A DNA stretch of 49,896 bases, taken from assembly GCA_032718475.1 (NCBI GenBank), contig JAUCBJ010000322.1:1-49896 (forward strand), written 5' to 3'. Origin of the DNA: Nemertoderma westbladi. Its lineage: Eukaryota > Animalia > Xenacoelomorpha. The position numbers and the translations under genes are program-made. Within the stretch, counting starts at the first letter, position 1. Every line of letters starts with the position of its first letter. A model generated the notes under the pieces. The model made no database searches. It was given only the letters and a program-made list of their open reading frames with translations, and had not been told where the DNA came from. This document shows positions 1 through 49,896 of the stretch, piece after piece.

Positions 1-396
1 TTTCAATAGCTAACAATTCTAAACTATACTATACGCTACGGCGGAAATACTATATACTAATTTATATAAATACTTCCTACTGTAAGGGTCCAGTAGTATA
101 CCGCTTACCAGATCCTAGTAACGATGTATCTTACTATGAGACTCTAGTAATGTATATGGGCTCGTACGGTATCTGACAACAAATCCCAGTCCAGGATATC
201 TAAACAAACAGATACAGTACACAAACGACTACTGGCGAGGAACAGAGCCTTGTATCTATTCTATGTACGTGAGCGGGTCTAATGCCTACGTACTAGACAG
301 AAGGATACCTGTCCTCTAACCGGTGAGGCAGATGTACAGTTACAGTAACAGACCAAACTCACGGGAAAACAATCCCCGCGCAGCGAATCCTAACTA

Positions 397-594
397 TCAC
401 TGACAGTCCTAAATACAGTAACTTGCCGCGGTGTGATTTATATGGTTTATATACGAGCTAGTGGGTTAACAGACCTAGCGTAACAACACTGACAGTCCTA
501 AATCAGTCGAAAAAGGGTCGTGCCTAAATGTAACAATAACTGATCCCCTTGTACGAAATCAGTCTAAAGGGTCAGGCCTAAATGTAACAATACC
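397..594. repeat. Short imperfect direct repeats inside the putative left LTR-element internal region
   Basis: CACTGACAGTCCTAAAT occurs at ~398 and ~487. AAAGGGTC..GCCTAAATGTAACAATA occurs at ~512 and ~566. Confidence 0.75.
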
Positions 595-1665
595 GTTGTC
601 CAGACAAACAACAGTTTAATAACGAAAGTGAAATACTCCTTATTTTGCCGCAACTAAATCAGATCCTAATTTTACAAATACAGATAATTTCCACCTAAAG
701 TAATGTATAGTACGCTATAGCTAGTAGAACTTTAAGGGCAATATGTTTTAGGGCGTGTGTGTGTGGGTGCGTTACAAATAAAACAATTTCGTGTAATTCC
801 TTTTACTAGGTTTTAGTGATTTTCTGACTAAATGATACCGTGCGCTAGCTACTAAAATAAACTAGTCGCGTTTGTAGAACTTTATACTCACGAATGACGT
901 CAAAGCTCTCTCCTTCCTATCCACAACCCAATGGGCAACCACAGTGTTAGTAACTACACCCGTGATCGGCACTAATACCAGATTCTGGTTGTAAGATAAG
1001 AATAGGGGTTAATCGCTACCGTACGTTAGCTGATCTGGTATACTAATTTAATTCTAGAACTTTGTTGCTGCGGTAGTTAGCAGCAATACCTATCAGTACG
1101 TGGCAAGGCGCGGTAGGATATTAATAAACCTCCCTAGGCCAAGCAGTGTGCCGGTAGCAGAAATACTCCTTGCCTGATCAAATAGCTAACTCCAGACAGG
1201 GGGGGGGGGGGGGGGTACTAATGTACGTTCTACAAAGCGAACCGGTACCAAACAGTCAGTGCTATGAATCACTAAATTATGGAACATATGCTGTCCGTAC
1301 CTAATATGTACTCGCGTACTGACGAATGGCAATAGTTCGCACCTGTAGGAAGTACAGGTTAACCCAGGGATTCGTAGGACTTGACAAAGGGTGGGGGTTG
1401 TCTGGATATAATTATTTGATCCTAAATTTGCGGCGTCCAGTACGGTGTCACGCTTACCCTGATCTATAGGTCTTACGGCGGGCAAGGGCGTCGAACAAAG
1501 TCTTACCTTTCTCACAAAGCGGGCGCTGCAAAGCAAGTTGAGCATTTCGAAGGGGCAAAGGGGGTGCGCGGTCAATCCAATGTGGGCGCTAGCGTGTTGT
1601 GGACATCCCTTCCCTGCGTTGCTTACGGCCTAACGATCTAGGCTGCCATCTCCCTGGTGTTCGGC

Positions 1666-1683
1666 TGTCCCGAAATCGGACCA
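1666..1683 (-). other. Putative primer-binding site (TGGTCCGATTTCGGGACA)
   Basis: TGG-initiated motif about 10 nt after the LTR-terminal CA on the minus strand. The cognate tRNA is not confidently identified (loose resemblance to tRNA-Phe/Tyr PBSs). Confidence 0.45.
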
Positions 1684-1693
1684 AAAGAAAACA

Positions 1694-2100
1694 TGTCAGG
1701 AAATTGCAGTTTATTTACAGTTTTACAAAGAATTATCAAACAAAGTTTCAACAAGAAACCGAATAAACTAATAACAAGTAAGAGAGAGTGTTAAGGTATC
1801 AGGTAAGATAAGATGATAACCGAAGGCAAACCGGCCCTTTTATACTAGAAATTGCACATGGAAACTAAACAGAATTTTCCACAGCTTCACCATTGAGCAA
1901 TGAAGTGCTTCGTGCTCTATGATTGGCCCAGCTCATCGTTCAACGCAGTCCGGCCCTTACACTAATCTGGGACATGGAATCCTAACAGAATTTTCCACTG
2001 CCTCACATTTGAGCAATAAGATAATTTATGCCCTATGATTGGCCTGGCTCATCATTCGCTACGTTGTACGCTTCTCATTGGCCTACCAATTAGCACCACA
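1694..2100 (-). repeat. Putative LTR (~407 bp; upstream boundary could instead be 1987)
   Basis: Minus strand reads TGTGGTGC...TTCCTGACA. CCAAT boxes at ~2078, ~2038 and ~1922; TATAAAAG at 1837-1844; AATAAA at 1710-1715. Imperfect ~116-bp duplication (1856-1945 vs 1972-2065) in the U3-like part. Confidence 0.55.
1837..1844 (-). promoter_or_regulatory. TATA box (TATAAAAG) of the putative LTR
   Basis: Consensus TATAAAAG lying downstream of three CCAAT boxes and upstream of AATAAA. Confidence 0.5.
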
Positions 2101-4693: not shown

Positions 4694-6160
4694 CATTCAT
4701 TCAAAATACCTGAGTGTTTAAAGCTCATCTATCCCATCATAGTAGACATGTACTGTACAACAAGAGTCCCCCAAGAAATGAAAACAAATAAGTTGGTGCC
4801 AGTTCCCAAGAAGGACAACCTAACACTCTATGGTTCTTTTCGGGGAATCTCATTGATCTCGATTGCTGCAAAGCTATACAATAGGATTCTATTAAATCGC
4901 ATCAGGGATCCCATTGAGAGACTACTCCGTGGAAATCAGAATGGGTTCCGTAAAGGTCGTGGGACCATGGAGCCCATTTTGGCACTTAGAAGGATAATAG
5001 AAGAATTATCAAAAAAGAAAGACAGGCATCTGGCTATTATCTTTGTTGACTTCTTCAAGGCCTTTGATTCAGTCTCTCGCTCACGTATGTTCAGCATACT
5101 TTCATTATATGGGATTCCTGATGAAATTATTGCAGCAATCAGATCAGTATACGATGGTTCGACAACATTTGTGTCTACTGTTGACGGTGACACAGAACCA
5201 TTTGAAGTGTTATGGGGCGTCCTCCAAGGAGACACACTTGCACCATTCTTATTCATTATTGTGGTTGACTATGTTCTACGCATGTCCTTAGATCATCATA
5301 ATGATGATGGGGTGATGATAGCTCCACCTACTGGCTCCAGAAGTCGAGGAAATCCTGCCAAGTACCTAACTGATCTAGACCTTGCTGATGACTTAGGAGT
5401 ACTCTCAGAATCATTAGAGGGAGCCCAACGGCTCCTCAGCTCATTAGAACATGCTGCTTCTAGTGTTGGTCTTTTTATTAACTCCAGAAAGACCAAAATT
5501 CTGACAGTTAACTTTGAAAGTCCTCAGCAAGTCTGTGATCGGATGAGCATAAGCTCAAAGGATGGTATGCTTGAGCATGTCGACGACTTCTGTTACCTGG
5601 GATCATGGATCCGCAAGTCAGGTGAGGACCTTCGAATACGTAAGGGAAAGGCATGGGCAGCCTTGAATAGGCTTTCCAGGATTTGGAAGTCAACGAGAAT
5701 TAATCGGAAACTTAAGGTCCGATTATTTAGAGCAGCAGTAGTTCCAGTACTCCTCTACGGGAGTCCATGCTGGGCTCTAACTGCTGAGGACACCAAATCT
5801 CTGGATGGCACATTCACAAGAATGCTACGCCGGGTTCATTGTGTCAAGTACAATGCACACATCTCCAACCAGACACTATATAACATTGGAGGTGTCTCAT
5901 TGGTTCCCCCAAGCTTGACACTAGAACAAAATCGCCTCCGCTTTGCAGGACATTGCTTTCGCCGTGAGGACCAGCCAGTGCATAATCTTGTACTTTGGCA
6001 GCCTCATGGAGTGAATAAGCATGGTGGACAGCCCATGACTTTCTTGAGACGCATCTTAAAGGACACTGGCCTTAAAGATGCGGATGATCTAGCAAATGTC
6101 ATGGGTGATAGGGAGTTGTGGCGGTGCAATTTTGTTGACAAGCCGGCACAGCATTCTTAA
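4694..6160 (+). CDS. Non-LTR reverse transcriptase (RT plus C-terminal region; endonuclease lost by truncation)
   Basis: Motifs FRGISLISIAAKLYN, QNGFRKGR, FVDFFKAFDSV, GVLQGDTLAPFLF, DLDLADD, FCYLGS and RLRFAGHC. The frame is open from the 4694 junction; first ATG at 4748. Confidence 0.92.
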   Translation, partial: HSFKIPECLKLIYPIIVDMYCTTRVPQEMKTNKLVPVPKKDNLTLYGSFRGISLISIAAKLYNRILLNRIRDPIERLLRGNQNGFRKGRGTMEPILALRRIIEELSKKKDRHLAIIFVDFFKAFDSVSRSRMFSILSLYGIPDEIIAAIRSVYDGSTTFVSTVDGDTEPFEVLWGVLQGDTLAPFLFIIVVDYVLRMSLDHHNDDGVMIAPPTGSRSRGNPAKYLTDLDLADDLGVLSESLEGAQRLLSSLEHAASSVGLFINSRKTKILTVNFESPQQVCDRMSISSKDGMLEHVDDFCYLGSWIRKSGEDLRIRKGKAWAALNRLSRIWKSTRINRKLKVRLFRAAVVPVLLYGSPCWALTAEDTKSLDGTFTRMLRRVHCVKYNAHISNQTLYNIGGVSLVPPSLTLEQNRLRFAGHCFRREDQPVHNLVLWQPHGVNKHGGQPMTFLRRILKDTGLKDADDLANVMGDRELWRCNFVDKPAQHS

Positions 6161-6199
6161 AAATGCAGCTGCAATGCAGCATGCCGATCCTAGTAGTAG
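4694..6199 (+). mobile_element. 5'-truncated non-LTR retrotransposon (RTE-like LINE) inserted in a satellite monomer
   Basis: 10-bp TSD TATTTCATGA at 4684-4693 and 6200-6209. RT ORF, 39-nt 3' end and (TAG)3 tail. The monomer continues correctly across the insertion. Confidence 0.93.
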
Positions 6200-9100
6200 T
6201 ATTTCATGAACATAATGAAGTATTAAAGCCATGTCAAAATCCTTGGGTTTTTTCAGCAATAATTTATCAAAATATCCTCTGATTTTTTTCAAAAACCACA
6301 TCGATTTTCATATTTATAACTTCTAACCCACTCCACGAGATAGAGAATCTTAAACGAAACTCATAAGAACAGGTAACACTTACATTTATAGAAGTAATCA
6401 GCTGTTATTTGCTTTGTCTTTCCCCTGGAGATGGATGAATTTGATTGCGTCGGAACACCCCCTTTTTGAGGCTCTCAGAGTAAAGATATAAGTAGCCTAT
6501 CTCCCTGTTAATATTGTTGTGTTCTAGAATATTTAATATAGTTTCATCGTATTGCCAAAGCGGTTGGAGCCGAAGTTAATATGTGATACAATAATTCACC
6601 TCAAATTTCTCAGCTATTTCATGAATATAATGAGTATTAAAGCCATGTCAAAATCCTTGGTGTTTTTCAGCATTAATTTATTAAAATCTCCTCTGATTTT
6701 TTACAAAAAACGACATCGATTTTCATATTTATAACTTCTTACCCACTCCACGAGATAGAGAATCTTAAACGAAACTCATAAGAACAGGTAACACTTACAT
6801 TTATAGAAGTAATCAGCTGTTATTTGCTTCGTCTTCTCCAGGACATGGATTAATTTTGATTGCATCGGAACACCCCCTATCTGTGGCTCTCAGAGTGAAG
6901 ATATAAGTAGCCTATCTCCCTGTTAATATTTTTGTGTTCTAGAATATTTATTATAGTTTCATCGTATTAAATATCTCAAATAGTTCATGAATATAATGAG
7001 TATAAATTCCTTGTCAAAATCCTTGGTGTTTTTCAGCAATAATTTATTAAAATCTTTTCTGATTTATCACAAAAAACGACATCGATTTTCATATTCATGA
7101 CTTCTAATCCACTCCAAGAGATAGACAATCTTAAATGAAAGTCAAAAGAGCAGGTAACACTTACATTTATAGAAGTAATCAGCTGTACTTTGCTTCGTCT
7201 TTCCCCTGGAGATGGATGAATTTGATTGCGTCGGAGTCGGAACACCCCCTTTTTGAGGCTCTCAGAGTGAAGATATAAGTAGCCTATCTCCCTGTTAATA
7301 TTGTTGTGTTCTAGAATATGTATTATAGTTTCATCGTATTGCCAAAGCGGCTGGAGCCGAACTTAATATGTGATACAATAATTCACCTCAAATTTCTCAG
7401 CTATTTCATGAATATAATGAGTATTAAAGCCATGTCCAAATCCTTGGTGTTTTTCAGCAATAATTTATTAAAATCTCCTCTGATTTTTCACAAAAAACGA
7501 CATAGATTTTCATATTCATGACTTCTAACCCACTCCAAGAGATAGACAATCTTAAATGAAAATCAACAGAGCAGGTAACACTTAAATTTATAGAAGTGAT
7601 CAGCTGTTCTTTGCTTCGTCTTTCCCCTGGAGATGGATGCATTTTGATTGTGTCAGAACACCCCCTTTTTGAGGCTCTCAGAGTGAAGAGATAAGTAGCA
7701 TATCTCCCTGTTAATATTGTTGTGTTCTAGAATATTAATTATAGTTTCATCATGTTGCCAAAGCGGCTGGAGCCGAAGTTAATATGTGATACAATAATTC
7801 ACCTCAAATTTCTCAGCTTTTTCATGAATATAATGAGTATTAAAGCCATGTCAAAATCCTTGGTGTTTTTCAGCAATAATTTATTAAAATCTCCTGATTT
7901 TTTTCAAAAAACGACATCGATTTTCATATTCATGACTTATAAACCACTCCAAGAGATAGACAATTGTAAATGAAAGTCAAAAGAGCAGGTAACACTTAAA
8001 TTTATAGAAGTAATCAGCTGTTCTTTGCTTCGTCTTTCCCCTGGAGATGGATGAATTTTGATTGTGTCAGAACACCCCTTTTTGAGGATCTCAGAGTGAA
8101 GAGATAAGTAGCCTATCTCCCTGTTAATATTGTTGTGTTCTAGAATATTTATTATAGTTTCATCGTATTGCCAAAGCGGCTGGAGCCGAAGTTAATATGT
8201 GATACAATAATTCACCTCAAATTTCTCAGCTATTTCATGAATATAATGAGTATTAAAGCCATGTCAAAATCCTTGGTGTTTTTCAGCATTAATTTATTAA
8301 AATCTCCTCTGATTTTTTACAAACAACGACATCGATTTTCATATTCATGACTTCTAACCCACTCCAAGAGATAGACAATCTTAAATGAAAGTCAAAAGAG
8401 CAGGTAACACTTAAATTTATAGAAGTAATCAGCTGTTCTTTGCTTCGTCTTTCCCCTGGAGATGGATGAATTTTGATTGTGTCAGAACACCCCCTTTTTG
8501 AGGCTCTCAGAGTGAAGAGATAAGTAGCCTATCTCCCTGTTAAAATTGTTGTGTTCTAGAATATTTATTATAGTTTCATCGTATTGCGAAAGTGGCTGGA
8601 GCTGAAGTTAATATATAATGCAACAATTCACCTCAAGTATCTCAGCTATGTCATGAACATAATGAAGTATTAAAGCCTTGTCAAAATACTTGGGGTTTTT
8701 CAGCAATAATTTATCAAAATATCCTCTGATTTTTTTCAAAAAACGACATCGATTTTCATATTCATGACTTCTAACCCACTCCAAGAGATAGACAATCTTA
8801 AACGAAAGTCATAAGAACAGGTAACACTTTCATTTATAGAAGTAATCAGCTGTTATTTGCTTCGTCTTTCCCCAGGAGATGGATGAATTTTGATTGCGTC
8901 GGAACACCCCCTTTTTGAGGCTCTCAGAGTGAAGATATAAGTAGCCTATCTCCCTGTTAAGATTGTTGTGTTCTAGAATATGTATTATAGTTTCATCGTA
9001 TTAAATATCTCAAATAGTTCATGAATATAATGAGTATAAATTCCTTGTCAAAATCCTTGGTGTTTTTCAGCAATAATTTATTAAAATCTTTTCTGATTTA

Positions 9101-36400: not shown

Positions 36401-38543
36401 TCAAAATATCCTCTGATTTTTTTCAAAAAACGACATCGATTTTCATATTCATGACTTCTAACCCACTCCAAGAGATAGACAATCTTAAACGAAAGTCATA
36501 AGAACAGGTAACACTTTCATTTATAGAAGTAATCAGCTGTTATTTGCTTCGTCTTTCCCCAGGAGATGGATGAAATTTGATTGCGTCGGAACACCCCCTT
36601 TTTGAAGCTCTCAGAGTGTAGAGAAAAGTAGCCTATCTCCCTGTTAATATTGTTGTGTTCTATAATATTTATTATAGTTTCATCGTATTGCCAAAGCGGC
36701 TGGAGCCAAAGTTAATATGTGATACAATAATTCACTTCAAATTTCTCAGCTATTTCATGAATATAATGAGTATTAAAGCCATGTCAAAATCCTTGGTGTT
36801 TTTCAGCATTAATTTATTAAAATCTCCTCTGATTTTTTATAAAAAACGACATTGATTTTCATATTTATAACTTCTAACCCACTCCACGAGATAGAGAATC
36901 TTAAACGAATGTCATAAGAACAGGTAACACTTACATTTATAGAAGTAATCAGCTGTTATTTGCTTCGTCTTTCTCCAGGATATGGATTAATTTTGATTGC
37001 GTCGGAACACCCCCTATCTGTGGCTCTCAGAGTGAAGATATAAGTAGCCTATCTCCCTGTTAATATTGTTGTGTTCTAGAATATTTATTATAGTTTCATC
37101 GTATTAAATATCTCAAATAGTTCATGAATATAATAAGTATAAAATCCTTGTCAAAATCCTTGGTGTTTTTCAGCAATAATTTATTAAAATCTCCTCTGAT
37201 TTTTTACAAAAACGACATCGATTTTCATATTCATGACTTCTAATCCACTCCAAGAGATAGACAATCTTAAATGAAAGTCAAAAGAGCAGGTAACACTTAA
37301 ATTTATAGAAGTAATCAGCTGTTATTTGCTTCGTCTTTCCCCAGGAGATGGATGAAATTTGATTGCGTCGGAACACCCCCTTTTTGAAGCTCTCAGAGTG
37401 TAGAGAAAAGTAGCCTATCTCCCTGTTAATATTGTTGTGTTCTATAATATTTATTATAGTTTCATCGTATTGCCAAAGCGGCTGGAGCCAAAGTTAATAT
37501 GTGATACAATAATTCACCTCAAATTTCTCAGCTATTTCATGAATATAATGAGTATGAAAGCCATGTCAAAATCCTTGGTGTTTTTCAGCAATAATTTATT
37601 AAAATCTCCTCTGATTTTTTACAAAAAACGACATCGATTTTCATATTCATAACTTCTAATCCACTCCAAGAGATAGACAATCTTAAATGAAAGTCAAAAG
37701 AGCAGGTAACAATTAAATTTATATAAGTAATCAGCTGTTCTTTGCTTCGTCTTTCCCCTGGAGATGGATGAATTTTGATTGTGTCAGAACACCCCCTTTT
37801 TGAGGCTCTCAGAGTGAAGAGATAAGTAGCCTATCTCCCTGTTAATATTGTTGTGTTCTAGAATATTTATTATAGTTTCATCGTATTGCCAAAGCGGCTG
37901 GAGCTGAAGTTAATATATAATGGAACAATTCACCTCAAGTATCTCAGCTATTTCATGAACATAATGAAGTATTAAAGCCATGTCAAAATCCTTGGGTTTT
38001 TTCAGCAATAATTTATCAAAATATCTTCTGATTTTTTTCAAAAACCACATCGATTTTCATATTTATAACTTCTAACCCACTCCACGAGATAGAGAATCTT
38101 AAACGAAAGTCATAAGAACAGGTAACACTTACATTTATAGAAGTAATCAGCTATTCTTTGCTTCGCCTTTCCCCTGGTGATGGATGAATTTTTATTGCAT
38201 CGGAACACCCCCTTTCTGAGGCTCTCAGAATTGAGAGATAAGTAGCCTATTTCCCTGTTAATATTGTTCTGTTGTAGAATATTTATTATAGTTTCATCGT
38301 ATTGCCAAAGCGGCTGGAGTCGAAATTAATATGTAATGCAATAATTCACCTCAAATTTCTCAGCTATTTCATGAACATAATGAAGTATTAAAGCCATGTC
38401 AAAATCCTTGGGTTTTTTCAGCAATAATTTATCAAAATATCTTCTGATTTTTTTCAAAAACCACATCAATTTTCATATTTATAACTTCTAACCCACTCCA
38501 CGAGATAGAGAATCTTAAACGAAAGTCATAAGAACAGGTAACA

Positions 38544-39104
38544 TGTGACGGGATCATCCAGAAAGGATCCCGATTTATCCTTGTTAGTTCACGCGTCCCC
38601 GCCGTGTGTGAAAGAGTGTAAAAGGTAAAGCTGCTGTTGTTCGTTATATTGTGATCTCCGGGATATGATATAGATATAGATGATATATAGATATTGGTGT
38701 ACACAGAAGGCGGGATATGTATGACGTACATACGTTGACGGTAACTAAAATCCCGGTACTTCCCTAGCTAATGTATGCTTACTGTACCACCAGTAACACT
38801 GAGATAACTGAAGTACTATGATTACTGCTTAGTGGTTATATTGCACGGTGGCCTTATTGTTCTACTCAATCGGTGCCAGCCCCCCTCTGATTGGTTGCTA
38901 CCCTTGTTGGCGCCCTTTGGGGTGTTCCCGTTCACCCCAGCTATTCTCTCTCTTGTCAGGGTACTAACCCCTGACCCTCACTGTGTGCCTCTCCTTCCCA
39001 TTCTGTTGGGGAGACACGAGTTGGTTGGCACCTAATCTCGTGTCCCCCAATATTGCTTATTGGCTTAACTTTGTGGAGTATTGGCGGGATTGAATAAGCT
39101 AACA
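38544..39104 (-). repeat. 3' LTR (561 bp)
   Basis: Minus strand reads TGTTAGC...CGTCACA. It is immediately preceded by a PPT, and satellite homology stops exactly at 38543 (GGTAACA|TGTGACG). The partner LTR is not in the window. Confidence 0.8.
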
Positions 39105-39115
39105 CTCCCCCCCAT
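39105..39115 (-). other. Polypurine tract (ATGGGGGGGAG)
   Basis: G-rich tract directly adjoining the TGT start of the LTR on the minus strand. Confidence 0.8.
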
Positions 39116-39848: not shown

Positions 39849-40547
39849 CTATCTGTTCCCCCGGGGGTAGTTCCCCCTAACGTCCTCTTCCCTGGGCCGT
39901 TTCTTGGTTATCACCGTACCTCTGACATCATCCGCTTTCTGCTTTCGGACCTTCGCCGCCACTTCCTTACTGATCCCGGTCGTTGGCTCCTTGGGCGCTG
40001 GTGTTATTAATGCCCGATACCGCTTCGCCGGTGGCCCCTCAGAATGGCCTGGCTGTCTCCCTCGGGTGGCATCCCATAGGATCATTTTCATTCTCTTTGG
40101 TACGTGCTCCGCCAAGAAGTCCCTAAACTCCCTCCGGTTCTCTGGCGTCCACCTGTCCAGGTACCGTTGCGTGTTCATAACTCCGGCGAACGACGCCGCC
40201 GTTGCTACCTCTTGATAGGTAAACGGTAACCTTCGCTTTATGATTTCCATGTGGGTCTCCTGGTTTATAAGAAAGAAACCCCACTTGAACTCCTGGGCCT
40301 TCATGCGCTGGCGCGTCATAGCCCCGACGTCGGCCCACTCCTCGAATCTTGCGAACTTCTCCTCGTCGTCCATCCAGTCGCACTGGCGTCCGTAGTGTCC
40401 CCGAAAGTGGCACTTTGGACATCGGTTGTGTAACCGTGGACACGCCCCCATCCTGTGGCTTGGTTCTCGGCAGTAGAGACAAAAGGTTCCTTTCTGGAAC
40501 CGATACAAACAGCTCCTTTCCCGGTGGGTCTGTCTCCCACCTCTCAT
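39849..40547 (-). CDS. Tandem CCHC zinc-knuckle protein segment (probable C-terminal part of the accessory gene)
   Basis: CLYCREPSHRMGAC and CPKCHFRGHYGRQC both fit C-x2-C-x4-H-x4-C. Basic C-terminus (PPAKRYR, KKRPR). Confidence 0.72.
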   Translation of the reverse strand: MRGGRQTHRERSCLYRFQKGTFCLYCREPSHRMGACPRLHNRCPKCHFRGHYGRQCDWMDDEEKFARFEEWADVGAMTRQRMKAQEFKWGFFLINQETHMEIIKRRLPFTYQEVATAASFAGVMNTQRYLDRWTPENRREFRDFLAEHVPKRMKMILWDATRGRQPGHSEGPPAKRYRALITPAPKEPTTGISKEVAAKVRKQKADDVRGTVITKKRPREEDVRGNYPRGNR

Positions 40548-40749
40548 ATGGTGTATCCACGTCCCTGTCTACCAGATGTCGGTGGTTATAGTACACCGAC
40601 TCGCCCTTCAGCCCCGGGTGGTCTACCAGACCCTCGAAAGCTATCTTAAAGGCCCTTCTGTAGCTCAGGGGTGATCCCAATAGCAGGAATGCCGTTGGTT
40701 CCTTCCCAATGACAATGGTCATGAATAGGTTCAGTAGACCCATCATATC
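40507..40749 (-). CDS. Probable middle segment of the accessory gene (frame of ORF 40123-40746)
   Basis: Supplies the Asp that completes an ExoIII-like Q-K-R-Y-I-L-x-D motif and bridges to the zinc-knuckle frame. Requires two frameshifts. Confidence 0.5.
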
Positions 40750-41623
40750 GCAGGATATATCGCTTCTGATATATCTTTATCGCTCCTCTCCGGAATTGGT
40801 ACACCTCTTGTTTCCCTGGTCTCGCTCCCCACTTCAGCGAGATCGCTAACTCTGCTCCGTACTCCTCTCTGAACTTTCCCCAGTCCGTCGGTTTATGGCA
40901 TACGAGCCCCAATAGCTGGCCCATCGCCACCGCTCCGCACTGGCCTGTGTTCTCCACTAGTCCCAACCCGTCTGGCGCTGTCATAGCCATATAGACCGTC
41001 TGCGTGTCCAGAAGGTTGGGGGTGTACAGACCAATGATTCTCTCCGCGTCGTCGCGAATCGCCGATCCCACCTTCGTCGTTGACTTCTCTCTTACCAAGG
41101 CTTGTACCGCCTTCGGTAGTCGGTTCAGCTTCGGCCCGTCCTTGCTCCCATACGTTCCTAGATCGAATAAGAAAATGTCCCCATTTGGTGCGGCCAAATG
41201 TAGGAGTATGGTCCTTGCCGACGCCGCTGATCCTCGTCTCGAATCCCTCTCGTCTTCCACGGTTCCCTCGTCATCTAGGATCATATATCCTCCTCTACTG
41301 ACGGACTCTACGAACCTCTTCCAATCCTTCTTCGGCGAATCCCTTGCGTACCTCGGAATCCCGAACTTCTCCTCGTCTCCCTTTACTTCGTAGTGGAAGT
41401 GTTGGAATATCGCGTTGTCCAGCGACGGTGTCCCGTAGGTTCCGACCAGCCGCTGTTCGTGCACTTCCCTGAAGTGGTCTTGTAGCGCTCGCGCTGCGTG
41501 ACCCCTCTCCAACCGTTTGTAGTATCCTCTTGTCTTTTCTTCCGGATGTCTCTTGGTGAAGTCCACCAGTATCTCCTTTCCTCCTGACTCTGCCTTTCTC
41601 TTCCTAATCAACTTACTCGCCAT
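40646..41623 (-). CDS. DEDDy 3'-5' exonuclease-like protein (WRN-exo/EXD/Mut-7/RNase D fold)
   Basis: Ordered motifs: YMILDDEG (ExoI DxE), LLHLAAPNGDIFLFDL, LPKAVQALV, KVGSAIRDD (ExoII), NLLDTQ, GAVAMGQLLGL..K, QKRYIL (start of ExoIII). First ATG at 41623. Confidence 0.75.
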   Translation of the reverse strand: MASKLIRKRKAESGGKEILVDFTKRHPEEKTRGYYKRLERGHAARALQDHFREVHEQRLVGTYGTPSLDNAIFQHFHYEVKGDEEKFGIPRYARDSPKKDWKRFVESVSRGGYMILDDEGTVEDERDSRRGSAASARTILLHLAAPNGDIFLFDLGTYGSKDGPKLNRLPKAVQALVREKSTTKVGSAIRDDAERIIGLYTPNLLDTQTVYMAMTAPDGLGLVENTGQCGAVAMGQLLGLVCHKPTDWGKFREEYGAELAISLKWGARPGKQEVYQFRRGAIKIYQKRYILRYDGSTEPIHDHCHWEGTNGIPAIGITPELQKGL

Positions 41624-42122
41624 TCCGAACACTACACTCGCTCACCTGCAGGGTGGTGCCTTACCAAGGCGCAGTACAGATGAGTGATGTATTAAGGTGT
41701 TCCGTACGGTTCGATAATGGCCTATATTCTACTTAATTGCGCCCTTTTATCTTATACTATTGCTTACCTAATTCTGTAGCTAACAAATGCACCCTAATTA
41801 CGATTTCTGTCCGTTACTTTTATTATGTTCCAGAATAATTTCTCTACTGTTACCACAATTTGTAACTTTCAGCCATATACTATTTATTTCTTGCCCTACC
41901 GTGCTACTACTTACTATTGCCTGTGAATTACCCTACTCTCTAATCCACATTCTGGCCTACTCTGTGGGTCTATGCAGTACAGCAGTATATGTCGCGTGGC
42001 CTACACGATCTATCCGACTGTACTCACATGCCCCCCTCTAACTGCTAACTAATATCTATATCATATATACATATCCCCCTAGTTCTAACTCTTATTAATT
42101 AGTACTTTCCTACTAATTCTCA

Positions 42123-42743
42123 CCAGCTAACTAGCGGACGTACCCTTAACTAATTAACTAACTATCCTAACTCTTACTTTCTAGCTAGTTAGCGGTACTA
42201 CGTACCCTCAACTAACTAACTACTCCAGCTAACTAGCGGACGTACCCTTAACTAATTAACTAACTAACCCTTACTCTCTAGCAAGTTAGCGGTACTACGT
42301 ACCATCAACTAACTAACTACTCCAGCTAACTAGCGGACGTACCCTTAACTAATTAACTAACTAACCCTTACTCTCTAGCAAGTTAGCGGTACTACGTACC
42401 CTCAACTAACTAACTACTCCAGCTAACTAGCGGACGTACCCTTAACTAATTAACTAACTAATCCCTACTCTCTAGCAAGTTAGCGGTACTACGTACCCTC
42501 AACTAACTAACTACTCCAGCTAACTAGCGGACATACCCTTAACTAATTAACTAACTAATCCCTACTCTTTAGCAAGTTAGCGGTACTACGTACCCTCAAC
42601 TAACTAACTACTCCAGCTAACTAGCGGACGCACCCTTAACTAATTAACTAACTGACTCCTACTAACTGGTGGTACTACGTACCCTCTAACTACTCTAGCT
42701 AACTAGCGGTACTACGTACCCTTGACTAATTAACTAGCTGACT
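42123..42743. repeat. 97-bp tandem repeat (~6 copies) made of two related ~48-bp subunits
   Basis: CCAGCTAACTAGCGGAC at 42123, 42225, 42322, 42419, 42516 and 42613. Rich in AACT/CTAA micro-repeats. Confidence 0.95.
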
Positions 42744-42867: not shown

Positions 42868-45800
42868 TTAAGGTGCTCCCTCCAAAAGACAACATTTACC
42901 TACAGCTCTCCTGTAGGTCTTTCTGTCTTTCGCACCTATCTTTCCACCTATCCGCACTTCTACCGATCGGACTCTTCCGTCCTTATCGGTGTATGTGCCT
43001 ACTACCCTCGCCAACCGCCACTGGTTGTTGATGATTGTATCATCCGTAACGATCACGAGATCTCCCTCTCTTAACTCTCTGTTTGGTTTCCTCCACTTGC
43101 TTCTTTTGTGAAGTGTGGGTAGGTATTCCTCAACCCACCTTCTCCAATACTCCGCGCTTATTGCTTTAGCGACTTTCCAACTCTGCTGGGAGTGTATGTC
43201 GTCTGGGTCTACACCCCGCATGTCGATTGTCACTGGCCTCTCCATTAGAAAATGGCTTGGCGTAAGCACCTCTAGTGACTCTGGGTCATCATTCTCCGGA
43301 TATAGCGGTCTGCTATTAATGATACCCTCACACTTTGCAAGTACCGTTCTCAAAATGTCCTCTGTGACCATATGGGTGTTCATCAGCTTCGTCATGAGAC
43401 GCTTCGAACTGCCCACCAGTCTCTCGACGCATCCTAGTGTATGTGGTGCATACGGCGTCCTTCTCTCCCATTTTACTTGACGTCGCCTCATGGCTGCCTT
43501 GACTTCCTCCCCTTCCAAGATGTCCAAGGCCTCTGCCATCTCGTTCTCTGCTCCCACAAAGTTGGTTCCGCTGTCGGAGTACATTACTTCGATTGTTCCA
43601 CCTTTGCGGTCTCTGAACCTTTCCAGCGCGTTTATAAACGCTGATGATGATGCATCTTGGGCGAGTTCTATGCCTACCGCCCTCGTGTTGTTACATACGA
43701 AGATTATCCCGTGGCGTTTCTCCGTGTGTCGCATCACCTTGATCTTTATTGGCCCGAACATGTCCACACCGCAATGCGTAAATGGCGGGTCGTGCTGTCT
43801 TACTCTACTCGCCGGTAGTGGTGCCATCTCCTGTATGGCTATCTCCTTCTTCGCTCGCCTGCAGGTCTGGCACTGCCCCACTACCGCTTTCACTTTCTTC
43901 CTTAGTTGCTTGACCCAGTAGGTCCTTCTTATTTCTGCGAGGGTTCGGTTGGTGCCCCCGTGCAATATCGACTTGTGGTAGTCCCAGATAATCTGGTGGA
44001 TTATCGGCGATCCTGTAGGAATGATGATGGGTTTCGGTGGTACCACAATGCTATTGTTGTATCCCACCCTAGAGTTCATTACTAGGATCCCGTCATCGTT
44101 TAGTTGTGGTGACAGCGTGATCAACTCGCTGTCTCGTCGAAGATGCTGTTTCTTACTGACGCGCTCCACTTCGTCGCCATAGTTCTTTCGTTGTTCGTAG
44201 CGGATGATTGCTCTAGCCGCTCCTTCCAGATCTATGGTCGTCCTGATTTTCTTCCTGTCGCCGACTCCCGCGAGGAAATTCCCGAAGGCTCTCCAGTACG
44301 CCACTAATTTCTTGGTCTTGTACCAGCTAGAGCTGTAGCTGAGGAGTTTATCCGTTGGGTTATTGCACACTTCCACTGATTTGGGTCGCACGTCCCTTAT
44401 CTCCCTCGCCATCTGGGAGTATATCTCTTCTCCCTCTGAATCTCCCTCTTCTCCTTCCGATATTACTTCTTCTGAGCATGGGTCCACCTTTCTCATCGGC
44501 GGCCAGGCCTCCTTGTCGCTCAGAAACTGTGGCCCGTGTTGCCACAATACTTCCTTCTTCAGGAAAGTGTGGCGTGCCACGCCCCTCGATAACAAGTCCG
44601 CTGGGTTCTCGTCCGTAGGGCAGTAGTGCCACCTTTCTAGCTCCGTCTTCGCCCTTATTTCGTCCACTCTATTCGCGACGAATATAGGGTATCGCGTTTT
44701 CTCGTTATGCAGCCAACCGAGTACTACCATGGAGTCCGTCCAGTAGTGTGTCTCCACTATGTTGGGAATAGCGTCCATTATGTAGGCTGTGGCTCTAACT
44801 CCTAATCTCGCCGCTGTCAATTCTAGTTTGGGAACTGACGCCGAATCTGGTGGCGTTGACTTCGCCTTGCTGAAGGCAAGTCTGGATTTGTGAGACCCCT
44901 CGTGTTGTACTAAGTAGAGTGCCGCTCCGTATGCCTCTAGCGACGCATCGGAGAACATGTGCAGATCCAGGTTCGTCATGTCCCCGTCCGGGAAATACAC
45001 TCTAGGCATGTTGTATGTTCCCATATCCTCTAGACCCTCTGTCCACTTGCACCATTGTTTCTTAATCTCTTCTGGCACCTCTTTGTCCCACTCGTCTTTT
45101 AGCTTGTATACTCTTTTGAGTATTTGTTTCCCCGTTACTAGTAGTGGGGATGCTAGGCCTAGGGGATCGTATATTCTTGCTATGTATGACACATAGCCTC
45201 TCTTTGTGTGGATGTCTGCGCCCTCCTGGCTTAGTTGGTACCTTAGTTCGTCTGTCTCTTTGTTCCACACGATTCCCAGTGCCTTTTGTTGGGACTCTGT
45301 CCTCCTACTCGCCATGTCCTGCCCCTTTGCTGTCGTGGGATTATCCATGGTCGATTGTGGTCTCTCGTCCTCTATCGCTTTGATAAATTCCTGCGAACTG
45401 GACTGGAATTTGGTCAGGTTAAAGCCGGATCCTCTTAGGATGTCGCGAACCTCGCGCCCCGTATCCAGTATCTCTTTAACCGTGTTTCCCGAGTCCATCC
45501 CGTCGTCTACGTAGAAGCCGCGTCGAATCATGTCGACGGCCCTAGTGCTATATCTATCCTCTTTCCCTTTTACCGTGTCTCTTACCGCCATAGTCGTTGT
45601 GAAGGAAGACGACTTGGCGCCCATGTTCTGCACTATCATCTTGTACATTGGTATGATCGACGGTTCTTCGTCGCCGTTGTACCATAAGAAGCGTTGACTA
45701 TCGCTGTCTTCTTCCGTTACACGGACTTGGTTGAACATGCCCTCTATATCGCAGGTGAAGGCGTGTTTTCCGTTCCTGAATCTTAATAGGACCTCGATCC

Positions 45801-48255
45801 CTGAGTTGTAAATATTGGGACCCTCCAGTAGATAGTCGTTTAGGCATTTTCCGTTGGTTTTTGCCGACGCATCTACTACCATTCTCAGCTTACCTTTCTT
45901 AGGATCTAAAGCCACGTGGAGTGGCAGGTAATATGTCCTGTCCGTATTTGGTTCGTCAACCGGTAGCTCCATGGCCCATCCCTTCTCAATGTACTTCTTG
46001 ATAGTTCTATGGATGTACTCATTCTTCTCGGGGCTCCGTTTTAATGTCTGTTTCAACTTACGAAGCCTCGTAAGTACCATCCCTTTATTATCGGGCAGCG
46101 GTAGCTTTGGTAGCTTCCATACCATCCCTATGGTATACCGTCCCTCGTTACACGTCATTGACTCCTCTACGCTCTGTCGAGCCTGCTTGTCCTCCACCGA
46201 GGTCCCTACCCCGGTCTCTTTTAATCCCTCAAAATCTTGTTTGAGCAGTCTTTTAAGCTGCTCCTCTGCTTTCTCATCGCCTATTTCCTGCATGGTTCCC
46301 GCGAACATGCATCCTGATGTCTCCGACATCCTAAATGGTATCTTACTCTTGATTGGGCCACTCAGTGTCCACCCGAATGGTGTCAATATCGCCACTGGGT
46401 CACACTCCCTGTCTTCGCCGAAGACCGTTTGCATTCTCTTGTGGGCCGTCGGGCAGTCCATGCCTACTATGATGGATACTTTCCTGACGTCCACCTCCGG
46501 GATTGAGAAGTCAATACTATCCAGGAATTTATATTGCTCGACCTCGATGTTGGTTGGTCGCCTGGCATTGATATTGATTGACTCTATCACTTGGATGGGG
46601 TCGATAGTTGCCCCGTAGTTACATCCCGGTGCCACTGTTGCAATCGCGCACCGTCCGGTTCTCATCTCTAGGACCTCGTCTTTGCTCGAGATGGTTGTTA
46701 CTGCCATTCTACTTGGCCTCGTCCTCAATCCTATTTCTTCGGCCACCCAATCTTCAACTAAAGTGAAGGCAGCTCCGCTATCGACCAGCATCAGAGTGGT
46801 TACTGATCGATTGCCTTCCCCAATCACTCTCACCGGTACTACCCCAAGTAGCACCGTTCCTCTCTTCTTCGCCCCTACTGTGCTCGTTGCCATTGTTTGG
46901 CCTTTATTTCGACGGTACTTAACCGGCGTCTCCTTGCATTGCCTTGCTCGATGTCCACTCATCACACATCGCGAGCAGATCTCATTTCTGTCCGCGTATA
47001 TTACCTGATCTTCTCTGGGTAATGCTTGCCAGTAGCTGCAGTTCATGGTTAGATGTTTTGCATTTGCATGTAGCTGGCATTTAGCCTTTGGGTCGTAGCC
47101 ATCCTTGTACAGTGCATCGCGTATCGCAACTGCATTTGTACTAAAGTCCCTACTGTTTTTATAGCTTGTGTTCGGCCTACTTGATGTATTGGGGTTATGT
47201 TTATTCGTGTTGTTGTTTTTCCCCTGTCCGGCCTTACCCTCTGCTACCTGTGGACTCGCAGTCCCTTGCGTCGCTGCATATGGCAGTGATTGTCTGAGCT
47301 TTGGTAATGCATTCGACGTGTTGTGCTCTTGTTTCGGTCGATGGTAATCCGTCTTCGGTCCCTTTCCCAGACTGTCTTCGCTATAGACTGGGTCGGTTAT
47401 TAGTTCAGCCTCGTAGCTCAGGATGCTAGACATTTCTTCTAGGCCCGGTTCCGCACCCTTTCTGTCTCTAGTGGAGAAAGCGACTCTTCTCCACTTATTG
47501 CGCAGCCAGATCGGCAGTGCCTGCGCTATCGTGGTGATGTTGTTGGAAGCGTTGAGCTCATATGGTGCGTCCAACGTCTTTAGCACGATCAGCGCCTTTT
47601 CGACTTTGTTAGCAAACGTCTTAATGCTAACAGGATTATCCTGTAGGCCACCCGTTGTTATGCCTCTCAGGGTTTGCCTGATGATCTTAGCTGGGTGCCC
47701 GTATTCCCTATCCAGTGCCCGCCATGCTGTCGTGAAGCCCCCTTCTATACCCTGGTATTGCCTCACGATGTCATATGCTGGGCCTCCTGTGTATACTTGC
47801 AGATACTTTAGGCACTCCGCCTGCGTCAAGTTTTTCGTTAGTATCTCGTTACTATACATGCGCCAAAACTGTAGATATTCTTCCGGCCTACTCCCATCGA
47901 ATTTGAATGGTTCCACGGGTGGTAACTCGATCCTGGTTTTTAACGCATCGATTAACGTGGCCATCCCCACCGCCTGCGCCTCTAATGGGCTCGATGGATG
48001 TTGCATAGTTTCCCTTGTTTGGTGCGGTCCATCCATTCTATTCCCTGTTCTTCTCTGACTTGGGTATATCATTGGGGGTAGCGGCCCCCTCCATATTTCC
48101 GTGTCGCACGATTTATTTTCGTCCAAGGGATTCGTTGTCCTCGCTCCTATTGGGGTATATTGTTGATATTGCGATGGGGGAATGTCACCCTGTCCCCCCC
48201 CCCCACCGGTATGTTTGGTACTGGGGTCGATGTTAATATATTGGGGCCCATGCAT
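42868..48255 (-). CDS. BEL/Pao Gag-Pol polyprotein (Gag, aspartic protease, RT, RNase H, integrase)
   Basis: Gag LPPVEPFKFDG and Cys/His knuckles. Protease LVDSGA. RT YLPLH, LRMVVDAS, DIEGMFNQV, QRFLW, FYVDD. RNase H FSDAS, PKLEL, WTDS, NPADLLSRG. Integrase H..H/CQTC, GVDMFGP, SDSGTNFVGA, GCVERLV. BEL-type C-terminus YWRRWVEEYLPTL..GDLVIV..DGRVRSVEV. Confidence 0.96.
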   Translation of the reverse strand: MHGPQYINIDPSTKHTGGGGGQGDIPPSQYQQYTPIGARTTNPLDENKSCDTEIWRGPLPPMIYPSQRRTGNRMDGPHQTRETMQHPSSPLEAQAVGMATLIDALKTRIELPPVEPFKFDGSRPEEYLQFWRMYSNEILTKNLTQAECLKYLQVYTGGPAYDIVRQYQGIEGGFTTAWRALDREYGHPAKIIRQTLRGITTGGLQDNPVSIKTFANKVEKALIVLKTLDAPYELNASNNITTIAQALPIWLRNKWRRVAFSTRDRKGAEPGLEEMSSILSYEAELITDPVYSEDSLGKGPKTDYHRPKQEHNTSNALPKLRQSLPYAATQGTASPQVAEGKAGQGKNNNTNKHNPNTSSRPNTSYKNSRDFSTNAVAIRDALYKDGYDPKAKCQLHANAKHLTMNCSYWQALPREDQVIYADRNEICSRCVMSGHRARQCKETPVKYRRNKGQTMATSTVGAKKRGTVLLGVVPVRVIGEGNRSVTTLMLVDSGAAFTLVEDWVAEEIGLRTRPSRMAVTTISSKDEVLEMRTGRCAIATVAPGCNYGATIDPIQVIESININARRPTNIEVEQYKFLDSIDFSIPEVDVRKVSIIVGMDCPTAHKRMQTVFGEDRECDPVAILTPFGWTLSGPIKSKIPFRMSETSGCMFAGTMQEIGDEKAEEQLKRLLKQDFEGLKETGVGTSVEDKQARQSVEESMTCNEGRYTIGMVWKLPKLPLPDNKGMVLTRLRKLKQTLKRSPEKNEYIHRTIKKYIEKGWAMELPVDEPNTDRTYYLPLHVALDPKKGKLRMVVDASAKTNGKCLNDYLLEGPNIYNSGIEVLLRFRNGKHAFTCDIEGMFNQVRVTEEDSDSQRFLWYNGDEEPSIIPMYKMIVQNMGAKSSSFTTTMAVRDTVKGKEDRYSTRAVDMIRRGFYVDDGMDSGNTVKEILDTGREVRDILRGSGFNLTKFQSSSQEFIKAIEDERPQSTMDNPTTAKGQDMASRRTESQQKALGIVWNKETDELRYQLSQEGADIHTKRGYVSYIARIYDPLGLASPLLVTGKQILKRVYKLKDEWDKEVPEEIKKQWCKWTEGLEDMGTYNMPRVYFPDGDMTNLDLHMFSDASLEAYGAALYLVQHEGSHKSRLAFSKAKSTPPDSASVPKLELTAARLGVRATAYIMDAIPNIVETHYWTDSMVVLGWLHNEKTRYPIFVANRVDEIRAKTELERWHYCPTDENPADLLSRGVARHTFLKKEVLWQHGPQFLSDKEAWPPMRKVDPCSEEVISEGEEGDSEGEEIYSQMAREIRDVRPKSVEVCNNPTDKLLSYSSSWYKTKKLVAYWRAFGNFLAGVGDRKKIRTTIDLEGAARAIIRYEQRKNYGDEVERVSKKQHLRRDSELITLSPQLNDDGILVMNSRVGYNNSIVVPPKPIIIPTGSPIIHQIIWDYHKSILHGGTNRTLAEIRRTYWVKQLRKKVKAVVGQCQTCRRAKKEIAIQEMAPLPASRVRQHDPPFTHCGVDMFGPIKIKVMRHTEKRHGIIFVCNNTRAVGIELAQDASSSAFINALERFRDRKGGTIEVMYSDSGTNFVGAENEMAEALDILEGEEVKAAMRRRQVKWERRTPYAPHTLGCVERLVGSSKRLMTKLMNTHMVTEDILRTVLAKCEGIINSRPLYPENDDPESLEVLTPSHFLMERPVTIDMRGVDPDDIHSQQSWKVAKAISAEYWRRWVEEYLPTLHKRSKWRKPNRELREGDLVIVTDDTIINNQWRLARVVGTYTDKDGRVRSVEVRIGGKIGAKDRKTYRRAVGKCCLLEGAP

Positions 48256-49896
48256 TTATCCGCAATAATTCCCCCCTCCCCTGGGTATATGTTATAACCT
48301 TTGGTGCTGTAGTCATACTGCTGCACTGGTACCGGTATAGGCCTATCAGCTTCTGGCCTACCCACCGGAATGTATTCCGCGACTTCCGGGTCTAATCCCG
48401 TTGTCCGCGCTATCCTATCGCCTACGTTGCTTCTGTCAGCATGGCCTACGGTATGTGCAGTAAGGCCTACAGTATGTCCTACAGTCTGTATGTACTGCTC
48501 GGGATCGAAGTTTATTCTTCTCGAATAGTCCTCTCCGCGGCTACCGTATTCTCGATCGGTAGGTACATCCCGACGGAAAGTTTCCCTCCGGCCCCCTCTA
48601 CTGCTCTCATCTTCGCGTCGGTACATCACGTATCTCTCTCTCGGCGTGTAGTGCGCCTCGTCGGGTCGCGTTTCTCCGGGGCGACGGCAATCTCCCGTAG
48701 TTCGACCCCACCGACTCTCTTCTTCCATCTCAATCACCGACGGCTCACTATCCGTTCTCGCTCTTCTATCGTTCGCGGCGATACTTCTTCCATCATCTTC
48801 TCCTCTTCTTCTCTCAGTGCAGTATTCCCGCTCGTGAGATCTCTCGTCGACCTCCCGGTTAAACTCCACCGTTCTTCTTCCCTCTTCCGATCGGGCTTGA
48901 CGCTCCGTCCGCCCTCTCGCGACGTCAACCTGCATCTCTCTGCTCGATCGCACGTCGCTGGGGACACTCGCGGTCCCCCTATTACTTTCCGTCGCCGGGT
49001 GTTGCGGTTTACCTACTTCGGCCCGCGCATTATCCGCCGACGCTTGTGGGACACTCTCTGCCCCCCCCCTTTCGTCACTAACTTCTCGCGGTGGGGTGCT
49101 CGTAGCCCCCCCCCCCCCCCACCCGCCACTTCTAACTTCGGTACCTCTTACTACACTTCTGTACCCTTCTCGTGGGGCGCTCTCTGTCCCCCCCCCCTCT
49201 CGCCGCTAATCTCGCGTGGTGGGGCGCTCGTAGCCCCCCCCCCACTCGCCACATCTAACTTCTTTATCTCTTACTCCACCTCCGCACTTTTCTCCCGTCG
49301 ACACAACGTTTGCATTGGGGCTGGGTCCGCTTACCCCCGCCCCTCTCTCTACTACTACCTGGCCTACCAGGCCTACTTCGGGTTGTCTCAACCCCGCCGT
49401 TTCCGGCCTACTAACTACGAGGCCTACCAGGCCTACCTCGGGTTGGCTCAACCCTGCTACTTCCGTCCTACTGACTACGCGGCCTACCAGGCCCACCTCG
49501 GGTTGGCTCAACCCCGCCGTCTCCGGCCTACTCACTACGTGGCCTACCAGGCCCTCGCCCGCTGGGCTATGTACGTTGGACGCGTCTATATTAATAATAC
49601 CACTGTGATTACCCTGCGCACCAAAGTTAGAAACAATATCTTGCGTTATAACACTACTTGGATTATTTTGTAAAATCGAATTCGGGTTATTATTTAAGTT
49701 ATTTGGATTACTTTGCAAAATCGAATTCGGGCTATTATTTAAATTATTCGGATTACCTTGTATAACTACATCATTAGAATTATTCTGTACGTTAATATTA
49801 GAATCGTTCTGATTTAAGATAAGTTTATTACTATTAGGTAAAGTATTTCCTGCAATAAAGATTTGGTTAGAGTCGTCCAATACAGTATTATTAATA
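48147..49896 (-). CDS. Low-complexity N-terminal Gag extension, broken only at G homopolymers
   Basis: ORFs 49206-49880 and 48147-48953 share a frame and are separated by one TAG lying between two G10 runs. The second overlaps the polyprotein across a G11 run (48194-48204). The frame is open to the window edge. Confidence 0.65.
49360..49555 (-). repeat. 60-bp coding tandem repeat (~3.3 copies of EVGLVGxVVSRPETAGLSQP)
   Basis: GGCCTACCAGGCC recurs at 60-bp intervals (49361, 49421, 49481, 49541). Confidence 0.9.

Follow-up and report, generated by a model that had tools for sequence, protein, structure and literature searches.

The DNA analysed here comprises 49,896 nucleotides of the Nemertoderma westbladi assembly GCA_032718475.1 (contig JAUCBJ010000322.1, positions 1 to 49,896), and this whole stretch is referred to as the window. 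It is animal-type DNA, in which a satellite of 416-bp units fills 2.2-38.5 kb and a long terminal repeat (LTR) retrotransposon of the BEL/Pao group occupies the minus strand from 38544 past the window end. Between pol and the 3′ LTR the element carries an additional gene, ORF3, in which a predicted DEDDy-type exonuclease domain is followed by two zinc knuckles. In this work we describe the structure and conservation of ORF3 and weigh its possible roles.

Organization of ORF3

ORF3 occupies the env position, on the sense strand of the element, between the pol stop at 42868 and a G-rich polypurine tract (PPT) ending at 39105, which is followed by a 561-bp TG...CA repeat end (39104-38544). These landmarks had been located correctly in a preliminary description of the DNA, which also noted NLS-like basic ends, here found as the stretches RKRK (41605), KRYR (40025) and KKRP (39905), and three overlapping frames on the sense strand of the element. 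Frame A runs on the minus strand from the ATG at 41623 to a stop at 40646, frame B spans 40776-40123, and frame C spans 40568-39849 with its stop at 39849. Their strand and place between pol and the PPT/LTR stand, but the frames are pieces of one broken gene and not three genes. Joined, they give a product of about 590 amino acids, as had been estimated (about 291, 61 and 225 codons plus a 34-bp junction). The features of the region are given below; X1, X2, X3 and X5 are sequencing runs whose contigs were aligned to the element.

42123..42722, minus strand: tandem array in the spacer between pol and ORF3, 97-bp unit repeated 5.5 times, plus a 37-bp pair
41623..41700, minus strand: ORF3 leader, in which a patch rich in pyrimidines and a CAG that ends at 41646 precede the ATG at 41623
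41291..41623, minus strand: N-terminal region of ORF3, about 110 amino acids, basic RKRK, no family found; synonymous variants
40751..41290, minus strand: predicted DEDDy 3′-5′ exonuclease domain, frame A, with ExoI-like D117/E119 (41275, 41269), ExoII D192 (41050) and the tyrosine candidates Y275 and Y289
40746..40750, minus strand: break 1, a frameshift at the likely ExoIII helix; longer X5 contig, depth trough in X1-X3
40562..40745, minus strand: middle piece of ORF3, frame B, covering the last part of the nuclease domain and the linker; of 5 variants 3 are synonymous and 4 fall at third positions
40528..40561, minus strand: break 2, change from frame B to C, flanked by X5 contigs that stop at 40527 or start at 40562
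40380..40481, minus strand: pair of CX2CX4HX4C zinc knuckles in frame C, separated by six residues
39849..40379, minus strand: C-terminal region of ORF3, about 175 amino acids, basic motifs resembling nuclear localization signals (NLS), no family found; 9 of 11 frame C variants synonymous

The start of ORF3 was placed at 41623 because other copies show single-base indels just upstream of this ATG, at 41634 and 41637. The leader is 60% pyrimidine, against 39% for the element, and the CAG at 41646 is a weak candidate for a splice acceptor, ranking 25 among 462 YAG sites and reading as a donor too. Since ORF3 begins 1.2 kb past the pol stop, with seven ATGs upstream, it would need an RNA of its own; we infer that this would be a sub-genomic RNA, either spliced or made from an internal promoter.

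Conservation of ORF3 within the element family

Four of the six listed sequencing runs were aligned to the element, as contigs only; X1 and X3 derive from one sample, so that three studies are represented, and the run with the best cover may be the window's own source. Between 39750 and 41750 all 30 bins were covered in X1-X3, by 3400, 2140 and 2226 contigs respectively, mostly 90-99% alike, and single ORF3 sites were covered by dozens of distinct contigs. The share of contigs continuing into unlike DNA was 0-1% in X1-X3 and 36% of 42 in X5, whose contigs are longer and more distant than those of X1-X3. The spacer array is shorter in other copies (joints from about 42062-42070 to 42662-42697 in X1, X2 and X3), and in two studies these joints connect the post-pol spacer with the ORF3 leader. 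No contig spanning the whole element, from pol through ORF3 to the LTR, was found among the run contigs. The ratio of contig depth over ORF3 to that over pol was 0.68, 0.83 and 0.78, values given no weight, as contig depth is no copy number.

For the analysis of variation 43 sites were scored, namely the 40 best supported out of 324 plus 3 others, chosen by support and not by their effect on codons; 4 of them, located in the 3′ untranslated region, were left out. In the proposed frames 28 of the 39 coding variants are synonymous (A 16/23, B 3/5, C 9/11), whereas the same variants read in other frames give 0-4. Random transitions would make 32-37% synonymous (binomial p about 1e-5, in a small sample of non-independent sites), and among pol variants used as a control 13 of 24 are synonymous. 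The third-position base use of ORF3 is like that of pol (T3 0.09-0.14 vs 0.13), and no terminal inverted repeats were found flanking it. Hence, on the contig cover in three studies and the excess of synonymous variants, ORF3 is one gene, a long-standing cargo of the family under purifying selection, which has been broken twice in the window copy. Its attribution to the BEL/Pao family, already made in the preliminary description, is borne out by the many contigs, the spacer joints and the pol-like codon use.

At break 1 (about 40746-40750) one X5 contig with a depth of 17.5 exceeds the window copy by a frame-changing stretch, and the X1-X3 contigs show a trough in depth. Break 2 (40528-40561), for which no bridging contig was present among those listed, may be a natural frameshift or a small intron. 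As gag is also broken twice in the window copy, the latter represents a decayed element.

Predicted exonuclease domain

The ExoI motif ILDDEG (41281-41264) and the ExoII motif KVGSAIRDD (41074-41048) had been proposed earlier and are present in frame A. The ExoI DxE likely corresponds to D117/E119, and the ExoII aspartate, D192, falls in an invariant column of the alignment, after the KVG strand. The third motif, QKRYILxD, held in part: QKRY is found at 40768-40757, but the aspartate was read across break 1 and is no evidence for ExoIII, since the X5 contig carries its frame-changing extra stretch there.

Membership in the families DNA_pol_A_exo1 and zf-CCHC did not emerge from library searches, frames A, B and C having no significant match in Pfam, NCBIfam or PHROG, and the DEDDy call therefore rests on weaker tests. 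In the ESM Atlas residues 95-300 retrieved three unnamed clusters at 0.95 and next a 'Werner syndrome-like exonuclease' cluster at 0.94, on a scale on which 4-10 of 100 shuffled proteins attain 0.9 and protein parts are uncalibrated. The Werner syndrome-like cluster has 189 of 256 features in common with the query, and 25 of the 30 hits belong to clusters with the same family set, PF01612 being assigned to 38% of members.

Five profiles in all were tried on frame A, built from bacterial DEDDy domains (13 RNase D-type, 9 Pol I-type and 30 of the 67 listed matches to a WRN-type seed, which itself matches WRN at E 1e-18). The WRN profile gave 5.7 bits and the WRN + RNase D profile 9.0 bits (hmmsearch, E 5e-5), a score reached in either case by none of 1000 shuffles; the combined RNase D + Pol I profile gave -0.7 bits, with 35 of 1000 shuffles as high. 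In hhalign 93 columns were aligned with a score of 34.6 (E 6e-5; E 0.0017 with a smaller alignment), while none of 150 shuffles scored as high (maximum 20.6), the reversed protein reached 10.6 and nine pieces of pol 19.5 at most. The aligned core extends from the strand pair after ExoI, through KVG and D192, to LLD, at about 15-24% identity to the WRN-type rows. The ExoI pair D117/E119 stands 23 residues before the conserved strand, compared to 18 in WRN-type rows, and lies outside the scored local alignments.

Taken as a claim of DEDDy identity, the preliminary description is supported by the Atlas, the directed profiles and ExoII, but not as to an intact active site, with ExoIII falling on break 1. 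Judged from these comparisons, the N-terminal half of ORF3 very probably has a WRN/RNase D-type DEDDy fold and may be catalytically active.

Zinc knuckles

Two exact CX2CX4HX4C knuckles are present at 40481-40440 and 40421-40380, where they had been noted before. Among 100,000 shuffles of frame C none had two knuckles and 12 had one. The best matches of the pair in the PDB are retroviral nucleocapsids, at weak E values of 0.096-3.6.

Searches for relatives of ORF3

No homologue of frame A was found in a word search of proteins of 178-569 amino acids, among PDB sequences, in metagenome contigs, among plasmids and phages (one chance hit) or in 151 Pseudomonadota genomes (three chance hits). Frame C had no homologue among longer proteins, in what is a weak test, and nothing was returned when frame A was compared pairwise by BLAST with an exonuclease of Mollyvirus and with a bacterial protein of WRN type. 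Neither pol nor the WRN seed had a relative among viral contigs.

A survey of BEL elements started from the best 80 of 555 stretches and yielded 79 distant loci, 62 of them with a pol end and 24 with at least 800 bp past it. No match to the WRN or the WRN + RNase D profile (E ≤1) or to ORF3 (E below 0.03) was found at any of the 79; all are distant relatives, and many of the flanks may already lie past the 3′ LTR. The exonuclease ORF3 therefore looks lineage-specific within BEL/Pao.

Five loci of the survey (L146, L182, L189, L209 and L210) are head-to-tail, with a second gag-pol-like frame 550-1000 bp past the first pol end, and are arranged as if one LTR served both.

The BEL/Pao element and its surroundings

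The remaining parts of the element are as follows.

48147..49896, minus strand: N-terminal gag region, running past the window edge; stop at 49206-49208, frame change near 48200
42868..48255, minus strand: gag-pol open frame of the BEL/Pao element, 1795 amino acids open
39105..39115, minus strand: polypurine tract, G-rich, recognized by sequence
38544..39104, minus strand: 3′ LTR candidate, 561 bp, TG...CA, adjoining a satellite unit; extra contig cover

By its sequence the element is a divergent member of BEL/Pao. The gag-pol frame shows, in order, capsid DUF1759, knuckles, protease, reverse transcriptase (RT) with YVDD, RNase H, integrase and DUF5641, so that Pol has the order protease, RT, RNase H, integrase. 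Pfam matches include Peptidase_A17 (1e-41), DUF5641 (1e-23), Integrase_H2C2 (1e-13) and DUF1759 (9e-11); the Pao-type Gag/Pol families PF05380, PF03564 and PF18701 are all present, and the top protein hits share an identical domain set. In the RT-RNase H region identity does not exceed 36% with the best of 30 protein hits, or 39% with the 79 metagenome BEL loci. The PPT precedes a 3′ LTR whose 561 bp lie within the BEL/Pao range of 0.2-1.2 kb. The window ends inside gag, and the 5′ LTR, primer binding site (PBS) and target-site duplication of the element lie beyond its edge; without the 5′ LTR the element measures at least 11.35 kb.

Contigs cover 38544-39104 more deeply than the element body, and one loose end stops at the first letters of the LTR. 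A 4.3-kb LTR that would include ORF3 was rejected, the extra cover being confined to 38544-39104. A relic PPT 55 bp past the pol stop was likewise dropped, as ten other sites in the same 4.3 kb combine a G run with TG; this pattern missed 28 of 51 control loci.

Three Gag knuckles are typical of BEL/Pao. Within 46936-47079 one exact CCHC knuckle and one variant starting C-x2-H are seen, and a pattern search found no third knuckle in Gag. The N-terminal gag region between 49046 and 49762 is made of 123-, 60- and 45-bp tandem repeats, and contigs vary in length at a G run at 48194.

The satellite at 2245-38543 comprises about 80 units of 416 bp and joins the BEL/Pao element cleanly at 38543/38544. 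Inside it, at 4740-6200, lies a 5′-truncated LINE whose reverse-transcriptase frame is open over about 470 codons. Positions 1-2100 (minus strand) are likely the 5′ end of a second, unrelated LTR element, in which a repeat stops near 1694 and is followed, about 11 bp on, by a candidate PBS of TGG type and a long leader; its LTR did not match the BEL LTR, and its PBS region showed no 8-mer pairing with its own LTR. A tRNA-like stretch of SINE type with a B-box-like GGATTCGAAC was seen by eye at 2125-2200, in which ARAGORN called no tRNA.

Comparison with known systems

DEDDy ORF3s have been described in the Gypsy-like LTR retrotransposons Juno and Vesta of bdelloid rotifers and in Athena/Terminon elements (PMC5408684); PMC6338049 and PMC6431247 mention them as an accessory domain already known. 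As in these elements, the ORF3 of the BEL/Pao element is a separate reading frame for a DEDDy-like exonuclease after pol, between pol and the 3′ LTR in the place of env; there as well the function is a proposed one (PMC5408684). The rotifer elements differ in not being BEL/Pao and in being low-copy, and the available text of that paper describes no fusion with CCHC knuckles, although Vesta2 and Vesta5 are noted to have a Cys-His-Cys motif (PMC5408684). Variation was analysed there for the env and GDSL ORFs only, which appeared neutral, whereas selection is seen on ORF3 here (PMC5408684). A DEDDy domain is also carried by the Dada DNA transposons of Laccaria and Ectocarpus, where it is thought to process cleaved ends; these, too, are mobile elements with a DEDDy exonuclease, but the domain lies within a DDE transposase and is no separate gene of a retroelement (PMC3706591, as far as its available text goes).

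The closest counterpart in layout, and the one solved precedent found for it, is TbRND (PDB 7C42), the RNase D of Trypanosoma brucei, in which a DEDD exonuclease, a linker and tandem CCHC fingers follow each other as in ORF3, with four fingers instead of two; it is a cellular mitochondrial enzyme (PMC7797062). RNA binding and efficient 3′ trimming depend on these fingers, overexpression of TbRND lowers guide RNA levels, and its authors call the pairing of DEDD exonuclease and CCHC fingers very unusual (PMC7797062). Neither frame A nor frame C matched TbRND 7C42 in phmmer. Since ORF3 lacks a sequence match to TbRND, the resemblance is likely a convergence, and TbRND serves as a model and not as a family for ORF3.

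What ORF3 shares with the host proteins WRN, EXD2, Mut-7/Nibbler, EXD1 and Egalitarian is a core that can be aligned, in the blocks near ExoII, with bacterial nucleases of WRN type, but no single host family stands out. These proteins are not known to carry a knuckle pair.

Compared to the family Belpaoviridae, the element has the expected PR-RT-RH-IN order, Pao-specific Pfam domains, a PPT and an LTR of 0.2-1.2 kb (PMC8742986; also PMC3118150, in the text available). It departs from the ICTV profile in its third gene, the profile naming an env-like gene as the sole one, and in its length, which exceeds the 4.2-10 kb given there (PMC8742986). The word exonuclease is absent from the main texts, supplements excluded, of PMC3118150, PMC6238403, PMC8556966 and PMC12440569, and no BEL/Pao exonuclease ORF or knuckle fusion was found in the literature searched; Repbase entries and subscription papers lie outside this scope and could hold one. 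The novelty thus lies in the presence of such a gene in a BEL/Pao element, in its fusion with knuckles and in the evidence that it is under selection, whereas DEDDy ORF3 cargo in other LTR elements was already known.

Proposed role of ORF3

The choice among roles in anti-silencing, in replication of the element itself or as an adaptor is one that we infer. A role in conflict with the host is favoured because the gene is absent from most BEL/Pao elements yet kept by selection, and the analogy with the TbRND layout suggests a trimmer of RNA 3′ ends. It is plausible, if tentative, that ORF3, as a WRN/RNase D-type exonuclease with knuckles, shortens or degrades the small silencing RNAs of the host or the precursors of these RNAs. 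Single-stranded RNA would be held by the knuckles, which would pass its 3′ end to a two-metal active site, as in TbRND; guide-type RNAs aimed at the element would be shortened or removed, and the chance of its transposition would be raised. The fuller proposal, of a BEL/Pao lineage that has equipped itself with a guide-RNA-trimming nuclease, TbRND-like by convergence, and suppresses piRNA/siRNA silencing, is possible but rather doubtful.

A number of observations weigh against the trimming of silencing RNAs by such an enzyme. Mature animal piRNAs have a 3′ 2′-O-methyl group, which hinders many nucleases of this kind, and the basic NLS-like ends of ORF3 suit a nuclear role on DNA or on RNA equally. 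Frame A has no homologue among 1.84 billion representatives and no significant match in Pfam or NCBIfam; with the RNase D-only profile it scored 2.6 bits, a level that 4 of 1000 shuffles also reached, and the Pol I-type profile did not report it. Besides lying outside the scored alignments, D117 was not placed in the ExoI column by MAFFT. ExoIII can be read either at Y289, followed by break 1, or at Y275, with arginine in place of the aspartate, and MAFFT chose a third tyrosine, again without the aspartate in place. The single-sequence fold of frame A failed (pLDDT 35). With 30 WRN-type rows as guide the fold reached a pLDDT of 59 and all leading structural rows were DEDDy nucleases, a match that is weak (EXD2 E 8e-4, best Z 4.9) and circular, WRN-type rows having been the input. 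The special kinship with Mut-7/Nibbler or EXD1 suggested earlier did not appear, the rows of WRN, TbRND, RNase D, Egalitarian, EXD1 and Nibbler being tied within 0.5 Z. Finally, the rotifer DEDDy ORF3s show no clear link to copy number in the available text of PMC5408684.

The evidence for the fold would serve equally an active DEDDy nuclease working for the element's own replication, by trimming the 3′ end of its RNA or primer, or the cDNA ends before integration. WRN-type domains are established to act on DNA too, Rodriguez et al. put 3′-end processing of element RNA first (PMC5408684, in the text available), and the role ascribed to the Dada domain in processing cleaved ends (PMC3706591) points the same way. 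The closest matches of the knuckles are retroviral nucleocapsids, and with one exact knuckle in Gag, ORF3 could add nucleocapsid-like binding. This explanation is nevertheless on the unlikely side: BEL/Pao elements normally replicate without such a gene, which none of the 24 distant loci with at least 800 bp after pol possessed, and it is not obvious how the product of a separate gene would be packaged into particles. The illegible ExoIII, with Y275 lacking its aspartate, would rather fit a weak or dead module of EXD1/Egalitarian type, serving as an RNA-binding adaptor or decoy that carries element RNA to the germ line or sequesters piRNA factors. Egalitarian and EXD1 are among the tied structural rows, one Egalitarian entry being titled as bound to I-factor RNA, and EXD1 and Maelstrom are described as inactive derivatives acting in piRNA biogenesis (PMC5408684, available text). 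A dead module is unlikely, however, as ORF3 has kept a DxE at the ExoI position and the ExoII aspartate in its invariant column. Dead members of the DEDDy group usually lose the ExoI DxE or the ExoII aspartate.

It is improbable that the N-terminal half is no DEDDy domain at all and merely a partial motif resemblance in an unknown accessory protein with knuckles. The missing library hit, the failed single-sequence fold, the level that shuffled proteins attain in the Atlas and its lack of calibration for protein parts speak for it, but the Atlas and profile tests agree without shared input, the shuffles, the reversed copy, the other frames and the pol pieces all stayed far below frame A in the profile tests, and the conserved blocks follow each other in the right order over 93 columns. 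Least probable by far is that ORF3 is a separate insertion or captured host gene private to this copy, a view for which the 5′ LTR beyond the window and the want of a single contig from pol through ORF3 to the LTR leave room; dozens of distinct contigs per ORF3 site, almost none of which enter unlike DNA, the synonymous bias, the pol-like codon use and the lack of flanking inverted repeats stand against it.

Significance

Few element-encoded candidates are known that might explain the resistance of animal retrotransposons to piRNA silencing, and the published DEDDy ORF3s belong to low-copy rotifer elements without a selection test on them. Here a multi-copy family keeps a predicted exonuclease gene under purifying selection, together with an RNA-binding module for which a solved mechanistic model exists, so that substrate and effect become testable with one protein and small-RNA sequencing. 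The finding extends third genes other than env to BEL/Pao elements. Should ORF3 indeed be a TbRND-like suppressor of silencing, Belpaoviridae would have their first accessory gene for an exonuclease, and a counter-silencing nuclease would occupy the env slot in both of the major animal LTR groups that share this Pol order.

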